The notes under the pieces: model-generated
What the model was told of the DNA's origin: nothing
Seen by the model: only the letters and a program-made list of their open reading frames with translations
Databases searched by the model: none
In this document: positions 61,902 to 62,499 of the stretch, one piece after another
Numbering within the stretch: the stretch's first letter is position 1
Layout: each line of letters opens with the position of its first letter
Position numbers and translations under genes: made by a program
Source: Escherichia phage RB16
Strand: one strand, 5' to 3'
Sequence record: NC_014467.1
DNA: 64,000 nucleotides

Positions 61902-62290
61902 AATTCATATTGTGAGCGAAGGATAGCGTAAAGGCTACCGATATGGATTGTGTCTACCGGACACTGGAAAAGATCCCCGCGCATCATGTTAAACTCGATA
62001 TCGTTACGTTCAACATAGTTACCGATCATTGATGTCCAACCCATCACCAGGTTGTAACCATCTTCTGATAACCCATAAGCCAGCCTAACCATGATACAAC
62101 GCTTATCAGCCAGTTCTACGCGCATATGGGTACTGGTATGAGTGACCTTGTTCGGGAATCTGCGAAACATTTTAGTAAGGAGTTTGGCGGTTTCAATATT
62201 GAACGCCAGTTCTTGATCCTTACTGGTCTGGTTATCATGACGACGATCCAGATATTTCTTCATTTTCGGATTCAGATTCACATGTTGCAT
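61886..62290 (-). CDS. hypothetical protein (134 aa)
   Basis: ORF track. Confidence 0.45.
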   Translation of the reverse strand: MQHVNLNPKMKKYLDRRHDNQTSKDQELAFNIETAKLLTKMFRRFPNKVTHTSTHMRVELADKRCIMVRLAYGLSEDGYNLVMGWTSMIGNYVERNDIEFNMMRGDLFQCPVDTIHIGSLYAILRSQYELWDMK

Positions 62291-62499
62291 AATATATCCC
62301 TCACAGGTTTATAACGTTCTTTTCCAGTGCCGTTGCATGAACTGCATTTTGGCGATCCGTAGTTATCATATCGCCCAGACCCATTACATGCAACACATTT
62401 CCGTAATTTACAGCCATACACGAACCGATTATTACATGCGGTTCGTGCTGCCTTGCGCTCATGGAAGTTCATACTTTGTTGTACACCTGAACAACCCAC
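62278..62499 (-). CDS. DnaJ-type zinc-finger mini-protein (two CxxCxGxG repeats)
   Basis: CVACNGSG and CSSCNGTG motifs. Confidence 0.5.
   Translation of the reverse strand: MGCSGVQQSMNFHERKAARTACNNRFVYGCKLRKCVACNGSGRYDNYGSPKCSSCNGTGKERYKPVRDILCNM

Follow-up and report, generated by a model that had tools for sequence, protein, structure and literature searches.

Two CxxCxGxG repeats, the signature of the DnaJ cysteine-rich domain, occur in a very small open reading frame (ORF) of Escherichia phage RB16, far from the gene for the J-domain protein of the phage. Does this ORF encode a detached piece of DnaJ, or a protein that works on its own? We examined this question in a stretch of 64,000 nucleotides (nt) from record NC_014467.1, hereafter the window, in which the zinc-knuckle (or zinc-finger) gene occupies positions 62278..62472 of the minus strand. 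The gene, and the idea that it is connected with chaperones, have already been published for its ortholog in phage RB43, ORF179c, in 2006 and 2012. RB43ORF179c and RB43ORF191c were listed as "DnaJ central domain" and ORF057w as DnaJ domain (Nolan 2006, PMC1524935), and the concluding remarks of a later study described ORF179c (61 amino acids, aa) and ORF191c (106 aa) as resembling the zinc domain of DnaJ, proposing that they and the J-domain protein Rki act in concert on DnaK/DnaJ/GrpE (Perrody 2012, PMC3486835). Our literature search found no papers mentioning RB43 ORF179c or ORF191c beyond these two. Our finding repeats the published observation, and the proposal of 2012 is still a hypothesis; what we add is a corrected start codon, the reading of the protein as a single Cys4 site, evidence for its independence from Rki and an inverted allele in RB16. 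We give an even chance to the reading that the product is an autonomous, zinc-stabilised early accessory mini-protein, which would bind some conserved macromolecule of the host in a stoichiometric manner while the phage takes over the cell.

The ORF listing contains, as originally predicted, an ORF of 73 aa (62278..62499, -); its first codon is GTG. The true start is almost certainly the ATG at 62472, yielding 64 aa (MNFHERK...LCNM) instead of 73, because this ATG overlaps the stop codon of the upstream ORF 62469..62672 as ATGA, the equivalent ATG is the annotated start in Lw1_gp170 and RB43ORF179c, and distant family members begin with M-x-F-x-E-R-K. The match to PHROG 12902 (E=1.6e-33) places residues 1-59 on profile positions 1-59 of 61. 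The extension of nine codons reaching back to the GTG (62473..62499, -) coincides with the 3' end of ORF 62469..62672 and is probably not translated as part of the mini-protein. The original prediction had named, as one way to refute it, a change of start codon that removes one repeat; both repeats are retained in the 64-aa form, so the prediction survives the shift.

These repeats, both encoded as had been claimed, are CVACNGSG (C26 V A C29 N G S G; 62374..62397, -) and, nine residues later, CSSCNGTG (C43 S S C46 N G T G; 62323..62346, -). Only four CxxCxGxG matches turned up when the whole window was scanned in all six frames, the remaining two being in stop-interrupted frames. Across the family, C26, C29, C43 and C46 are the only conserved cysteines, each of them present in 198 of 198 family cores, and C13, C21 and C62 of the window protein are not conserved. 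By this pattern the mini-protein has one Cys4 site and not the two centres of DnaJ, because only four cysteines are conserved; these four are predicted, most likely, to hold one zinc ion together. The spacer between the motifs is nine residues long in 198 of 210 family members, and the family consensus reads F-x-E-R-K-x-x-R-x-x-x-Y-x-x-x-V-x-G-W-K-L-R-x-C-x-A-C-N-G-S-G-R-Y-D-x-x-G-S-P-K-C-x-x-C-N-G-T-G-K-E-R-Y-K-P. The window protein retains from this signature the F-x-E-R-K-x-x-R helix motif, the four cysteines, Y35, D36 and P41.

AlphaFold2, supplied with the family alignment, produced a model with a mean predicted local distance difference test (pLDDT) score of 83, containing a helix at residues 3-18 and strands at 22-25 and 51-54 that bracket both knuckles. 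The amphipathic, basic N-terminal helix, which carries the F-x-E-R-K-x-x-R motif, is predicted to pack on the hairpin between the two strands. The window protein has ~7 kDa, an isoelectric point (pI) of 9.5 and a net charge of about +8 to +8.5 in 64 aa. The family is also basic (median core charge +5.5, pI 9.3), with conserved basic positions at R6, K7, R10, K22 and in the K-E-R-Y-K tail, although some members are acidic (minimum core charge -2.5).

The window belongs to the RB43-like group of T4-type phages (Straboviridae, Pseudotevenvirus), and over 61000-64000 it shares 94.5% identity with Escherichia phage Lw1 and 90% with Cronobacter phage GAP161. The orthologs Lw1_gp170 and RB43 ORF179c (UniProt Q56BL9) show 81-92% aa identity, and the RB43 record confirms the orthology. 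The prediction had also been staked on conservation in relatives, which proved extensive: the gene is present in 178 phage records (tblastn), a word-indexed protein search found 84 clusters, and a HMMER profile search recovered 582 representative clusters (at 50% identity) with E<=1e-3 and 294 with E<=1e-10, nearly all of 55-130 aa. Among RB43-like and KP15-like relatives, the ratio of nonsynonymous to synonymous substitution rates (dN/dS) is 0.03-0.11. These comparisons identify the zinc-knuckle ORF as a genuine accessory gene of the RB43-like T4-type phage.

Members of the family, 50-75% identical, occur in T4-type, jumbo and temperate phages of gamma- and beta-proteobacteria, and two Agrobacterium phage records hint at alpha-proteobacterial hosts too. 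In bacterial genomes, full-length members were found in only four species-representative assemblies, three from Gammaproteobacteria (Winslowiella, a Pseudomonas fluorescens megaplasmid and a metagenome-assembled genome) and one from the betaproteobacterium Massilia. The typical surroundings of the gene are arrays of small uncharacterised genes in phage contigs of 135-477 kb. Outside the RB43/KP15 lineage we found no conserved neighbours, either by tblastn with 14 neighbours from the window or by all-against-all clustering of ORFs within 4 kb of the gene at ~90 loci. Salmonella phage F1055, a temperate phage with a complete genome of 40.9 kb, has the gene in its early-left int/xis/exo region, as an unannotated ORF of 58 aa from its ATG (OP745618.1, locus L093, 23685..23876, -). 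It is crossed in another frame by the annotated F1055_0030 (175 aa, GTG start), whose 5' end is probably an artefact. Citrobacter phage Maroon also has an intact ortholog that escaped annotation, in the gap between CPT_Maroon_171 and CPT_Maroon_172 (MH823906.1, locus L002, ~4932..5123, -).

How close is the mini-protein to DnaJ? The Pfam profile of the DnaJ central domain, PF00684, matched it with E=9e-4 over profile positions 1-28 of 65, scoring 19.9 bits against a gathering cut-off of 32.7, and matched 33 of 37 family members at E<=0.01 (best E 8.2e-8). The nine-residue spacer is the same as that between repeats 1 and 2 of the DnaJ cysteine-rich domain (solved chain 6jzb_A). Nevertheless, DnaJ has four repeats forming two interleaved zinc centres, whereas the mini-protein has two repeats and one Cys4 site; type I DnaJ also has a J domain, a G/F region and a C-terminal substrate domain, whereas the 64-aa protein has no other domain. 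The claim of a stand-alone DnaJ-type signature holds in the profile match and the spacer, and does not extend to the number of repeats or to the Pfam cut-off. Sequence comparison indicates that the DnaJ-type knuckle is real at the level of the motif, and that the protein is no member of the four-repeat DnaJ domain family.

The best matches in a fold search were Anti-TRAP and the zinc domains of DnaJA2/DnaJA3, all weak, and comparison of the family profile with all PDB sequences returned only Anti-TRAP (E 0.13) and DnaJ (E 0.3). The top Foldseek match of the model was Anti-TRAP chain 3lcz_A, with a probability of 0.94 but an E of 0.34, and template modelling (TM) scores of 0.42/0.51. Anti-TRAP (RtpA of Bacillus; PDB 3lcz, 2bx9) is also a stand-alone protein, of ~55-65 residues, which forms one zinc site from two DnaJ-type knuckles and is a protein-binding inhibitor. 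Its spacer has six residues versus nine in the phage family, and its knuckles start near residue 11 of a 53-residue chain, whereas the phage proteins have an N-terminal helix. We rejected the identification of the mini-protein as an Anti-TRAP, since the similarity is not significant (E 0.13-0.34) and the Anti-TRAP profiles score under their cut-offs (PF15777, 15.6 vs 32 bits; NF058604, 17.7 vs 65 bits). No TRAP or T-box context was seen at the family loci, which are early regions of proteobacterial phages; to our knowledge, TRAP is a Bacillus system that is absent from proteobacterial hosts.

Knuckles of this type are found outside J-proteins elsewhere. The plant proteins BSD2, LQY1 and CYO1 carry DnaJ-type CxxCxGxG knuckles as client-binding or assembly modules; such proteins are from eukaryotic organelles, usually larger, and often have four repeats, and the searches made detected no sequence relationship between plant stand-alone DnaJ-like zinc fingers and the phage family. 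The DNA polymerases of HMO-2011-type phages contain a partial DnaJ central domain with exactly two CxxCxGxG repeats (PMC9038755), a likeness by description; there, the repeats form an insertion in a large enzyme, separating its exonuclease domain from its polymerase domain, whereas the phage family consists of free mini-proteins.

The J-domain protein that had been placed ~56 kb away was confirmed: a 566-aa protein of the Rki type is encoded at 4811..6511 (+), about 55.8 kb from the zinc-knuckle gene, with an HPD motif and a Pfam DnaJ score of 25.1 bits (cut-off 27.8). It is 98.6% identical to RB43 over all 566 aa. A fusion of Rki with ORF058 ('Rki16') was described for RB16 (PMC3486835), and the window indeed has a single fused ORF of 566 aa, whereas in RB43 it is split into a 237-aa Rki and ORF058w. 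The J-domain protein Rki of RB43 (ORF057w) is made early, works through DnaK and stabilises sigma-32 (Perrody 2012, PMC3486835). Between the gene for a gp46-like recombination nuclease subunit and the short ORF preceding the Rki gene, the window contains a 191-aa ORF (3995..4570, +) that looks, by eye, like an HNH/AP2-type homing endonuclease. The other RB43 look-alike, RB43ORF191c (locus L143, 1627..1947), and Lw1_gp181 (locus L001, 8630..8968, -) represent a second, unrelated-looking CxxCxGxG mini-protein of 106-112 aa, with 27 residues between the motifs; its gene lies ~4 kb beyond the zinc-knuckle gene in close relatives and would fall just past the end of the window.

Rki and the zinc-knuckle gene occur together in ~165 Pseudotevenvirus and Slopekvirus records, but this co-occurrence in enterobacterial T4-type phages is that of one vertical lineage and counts once. 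We searched for J domains by tblastn with Rki, a Rki-like protein from Variovorax and the J domain of E. coli DnaJ, the last as an approximate sequence. No J domain was found at E<=10 in the complete F1055 genome, though it has the zinc-knuckle gene, and within flanks of up to 10 kb none was present in 79 of 80 IMG/VR loci, those outside the RB43/KP15 lineage all being without one. The one positive of this search near the gene was Variovorax phage V45v66. Conversely, at Rki-like loci outside that lineage, in phages of the Aeromonas phage 65 type and on other contigs, no zinc finger of the family was found within 10-12 kb. The distribution of the gene argues against an obligate partnership with Rki.

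Variovorax phage V45v66, which by its sequence is only distantly T4-like (its T4-type core and other shared genes are 22-35% identical to the window), has a zinc-knuckle gene that is 65% identical and a Rki-like gene that is 28% identical, in one co-directional cluster and two genes apart. This cluster is unannotated (PV558790.1, locus L012, 2994..5121, -) and comprises the Rki-like gene (342 aa), a 136-aa ORF, a 138-aa ORF with, by eye, a membrane-spanning look, and the zinc-knuckle gene; there are 4-nt overlaps between the last three genes, and 33 nt separate the J-domain gene from the next one. The single adjacency is weak evidence for a chaperone link, because both genes belong to early accessory regions.

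In the window, the zinc-knuckle gene is the second of a tightly overlapping unit of four genes, flanked by two terminator-like hairpins found by scanning (61259..61273, after gene 4, and 62717..62744, -, closing the preceding unit). Gene 1 (62469..62672, -; 67 aa, PHROG 7982), whose stop overlaps the zinc-knuckle start, is conserved only in RB43/KP15-like phages; gene 3 (61886..62290, -; 134 aa, PHROG 10044) overlaps the 3' end of the zinc-knuckle gene by 13 nt; and gene 4 (61299..61901, -; 200 aa, PHROG 7582) encodes a coiled-coil-like segment. All these partners belong to PHROGs without functional annotation. The same gene order exists in Lw1, RB43 (ORF180c-179c-178c-177c), Maroon and IMG/VR relatives, and in Maroon a terminator is annotated at the place equivalent to 62717..62744.

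A candidate early promoter of the unit is situated at 62709..62737 (-), with a -35 box TTGTAT (62737..62732), which the upstream hairpin overlaps, a -10 box TATATT (62714..62709), a 17-nt spacer and an A-rich upstream region. It is homologous by alignment to Pe:96875, a predicted early promoter (hidden Markov model, HMM, score 27.4) that immediately precedes ORF180c in RB43 (Nolan 2006, Additional File 3, PMC1524935). A generic sigma-70 scan gave no promoter above threshold upstream of the unit, the candidate itself scoring below it. Because the predicted promoter is conserved, we infer that the zinc-knuckle gene is transcribed early, as the translationally coupled second gene of the unit.

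The copy in RB16 is unusual. The gene contains a quasi-palindrome (62419..62447, -), with 9-bp inverted repeats at 62419..62427 and 62439..62447 around an 11-nt loop (62428..62438), and DNA alignment with Lw1, RB43, Maroon and one KP15-like phage showed that this loop is exactly inverted in RB16. The change resembles a micro-inversion of the template-switch type. The inversion causes the changes D12A, Y13C, Y14N and M15N, creating the non-conserved Cys13, and codon 21 (62410..62412, -) is TGT (Cys) versus TGG (Trp) in relatives. Of 198 family cores, 168 have an aromatic residue at position 14 and two have N; at position 21, 156 have an aromatic residue, which is W in 130, and none has C. The inversion and W21C remove two conserved aromatic residues from the window protein, which may be weakened by them. 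A DNA pattern search of IMG/VR did not find the allele; its pattern was asymmetric, since the quasi-palindrome otherwise also matches the opposite strand of the canonical allele. In the phage collection, the best match was 97.0%. Between the window and Lw1, dN/dS is 0.56.

A close relative has lost the knuckles altogether. Contig NZ_JBHSCL010000010.1 (178,077 bp) of a Flagellimonas marina assembly carries a zinc-knuckle gene with an 83-nt frameshifting deletion that removes both of them (locus L105, 5970..6130). Proteins from this contig are 46-99% identical to those of the window neighbour genes, most of them at least 84%, and it is about one phage genome long, which suggests that it is a contaminant in a marine Flavobacteriia assembly.

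In the reading to which we give an even chance, the gene would be transcribed early within its unit, the basic helix of the product would pack on the knuckle hairpin, with four cysteines holding one zinc ion, and this stand-alone knuckle, like Anti-TRAP and plant BSD2, would bind a conserved host macromolecule stoichiometrically. It would be neither an enzyme nor an obligate subunit of Rki. That phages of different proteobacterial classes share the protein at such high identity argues for a conserved target, and its mobility and lack of a fixed partner gene argue for self-sufficiency; the nearest structural relatives of the model, all weak matches, are client-binding knuckles. The host DnaK/DnaJ machine would be one candidate target among others, and no data single it out. 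Against this reading weigh the clustering with a Rki-like gene in V45v66, the strong positive charge, which fits nucleic-acid binding equally well, and the dispensability of the gene under at least some conditions, which follows because it is frameshift-deleted in a close relative and altered at conserved positions in the window.

That the protein might be a chaperone-pathway interactor, as the original prediction had suggested, finds a hint in V45v66 and is otherwise opposed by the distribution of the gene relative to a J-domain partner. In its fullest form, this idea has the mini-protein supplying the zinc-domain function in trans to the type III J-protein Rki, or mimicking the DnaJ zinc centre, so that with Rki and the RB43 ORF191c-type ORF it would hijack or inhibit host DnaK/DnaJ/GrpE. 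We consider this unlikely. The motif and its spacing do match DnaJ repeats 1-2, RB43-like and KP15-like phages carry all three genes, V45v66 has two of them in one cluster, and Rki is early and acts through DnaK (PMC3486835), the zinc-knuckle gene being also predicted as early. However, the enterobacterial co-occurrence amounts to one event, F1055 and 79 of the 80 IMG/VR contexts lack a J domain within the limits given above, Rki-like loci of the Aeromonas phage 65 type and others lack the zinc finger, and the window has the two genes on opposite strands, with 56 kb between them. Moreover, two repeats cannot reproduce the two-centre, V-shaped domain of DnaJ, and a single adjacency in early accessory regions is possible by chance (rough estimate, about 0.1). 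A related reading, in which the ~60-residue knuckle is a decoy of the DnaJ zinc centre that docks on DnaK or another universally conserved hub of the host and jams or redirects it early, would explain both the 50-75% identity across phage types and the pairing with Rki in RB43-like phages, but seems to us quite improbable.

Binding of the helix and knuckle to DNA or RNA, for example in the early control of transcription or translation or in association with RNA or ribosomes, is a serious rival in view of the strong positive charge, though likewise an unlikely one. It would account for the charge of the window protein (about +8.5 in 64 aa, with its pI of 9.5), the basic character of the whole family and the conservation of R6, K7, R10, K22 and the K-E-R-Y-K tail, and there is a weak PHROG match to a Q-like antitermination zinc-finger family (E=3.8e-4). 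Yet we found neither a likeness of the protein to a known DNA- or RNA-binding zinc ribbon, its best fold and profile matches being protein-binding DnaJ-type knuckles, nor an adjacent target site or partner gene that is conserved, and some members of the family are acidic. Oxidoreductase activity has been reported for the DnaJ cysteine-rich domain and for plant stand-alone DnaJ-like zinc fingers. A thiol-disulfide oxidoreductase is nonetheless a very remote prospect here, because the CxxC-containing motif is all that is shared, the single zinc site needs all four cysteines, the protein would act in a reducing bacterial cytoplasm, and we found no thioredoxin-like context and nothing redox-related in the gene neighbourhoods. 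Finally, whatever the family does, the inversion and W21C could have destabilised the packing of helix and knuckles, leaving a non-functional or hypomorphic product in RB16. The rarity of N14 and absence of C21 in the family, the dN/dS of 0.56 versus 0.03-0.11 among relatives, the failure to find the allele in IMG/VR or the phage collection, and the deletion in a close relative make such decay a possibility, albeit a doubtful one: the reading frame and the start overlap are intact, as are all four zinc-binding cysteines and the remaining conserved positions, some family members have non-aromatic residues at positions 14 and 21, and a sequencing or assembly artefact at the hairpin is possible.

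Several further features accompany the gene. Longer family members carry heterogeneous extensions, and the metagenomic proteins P0126, P0194 and P0206 have in common a C-terminal extension of ~80-90 residues with the motif L-R-[IV]-Y-V-x-x-R...I-Y-Q-Y; all three look like true fusions rather than gene-calling run-ons. We rejected as chance a likeness between this C-terminal domain and the 134-aa neighbour in the window (BLAST E=0.039), because P0126 gave E=5 and an HMM search of neighbouring ORFs gave no backing. Three genes upstream of the zinc-knuckle gene, the window encodes a 177-aa protein consisting of GmrSD_N/DUF262 only (63056..63589, -). A copy that is 46% identical lies one gene from the zinc-knuckle gene in F1055 (L093, 24263..24769), and further copies are near it at loci L022 (9087..9593) and L100 (7760..8110), most F1055-like prophage loci being without one. 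On the downstream side of the unit, a few genes away, the window encodes a radical SAM-like protein (58403..59557, -), annotated as 'putative radical SAM protein' in Lw1 and Maroon; the flank of another zinc-knuckle locus (L049) encodes a distant homolog with 27% identity.

If the target of the mini-protein were identified, the family, with at least 294 clusters, would rank among the most widespread small phage proteins that are directed at the host and have a defined mechanism. Its identification would also settle the hypothesis of 2012, in which DnaJ is used "in pieces" by RB43-like phages against the Hsp70 system of the host.

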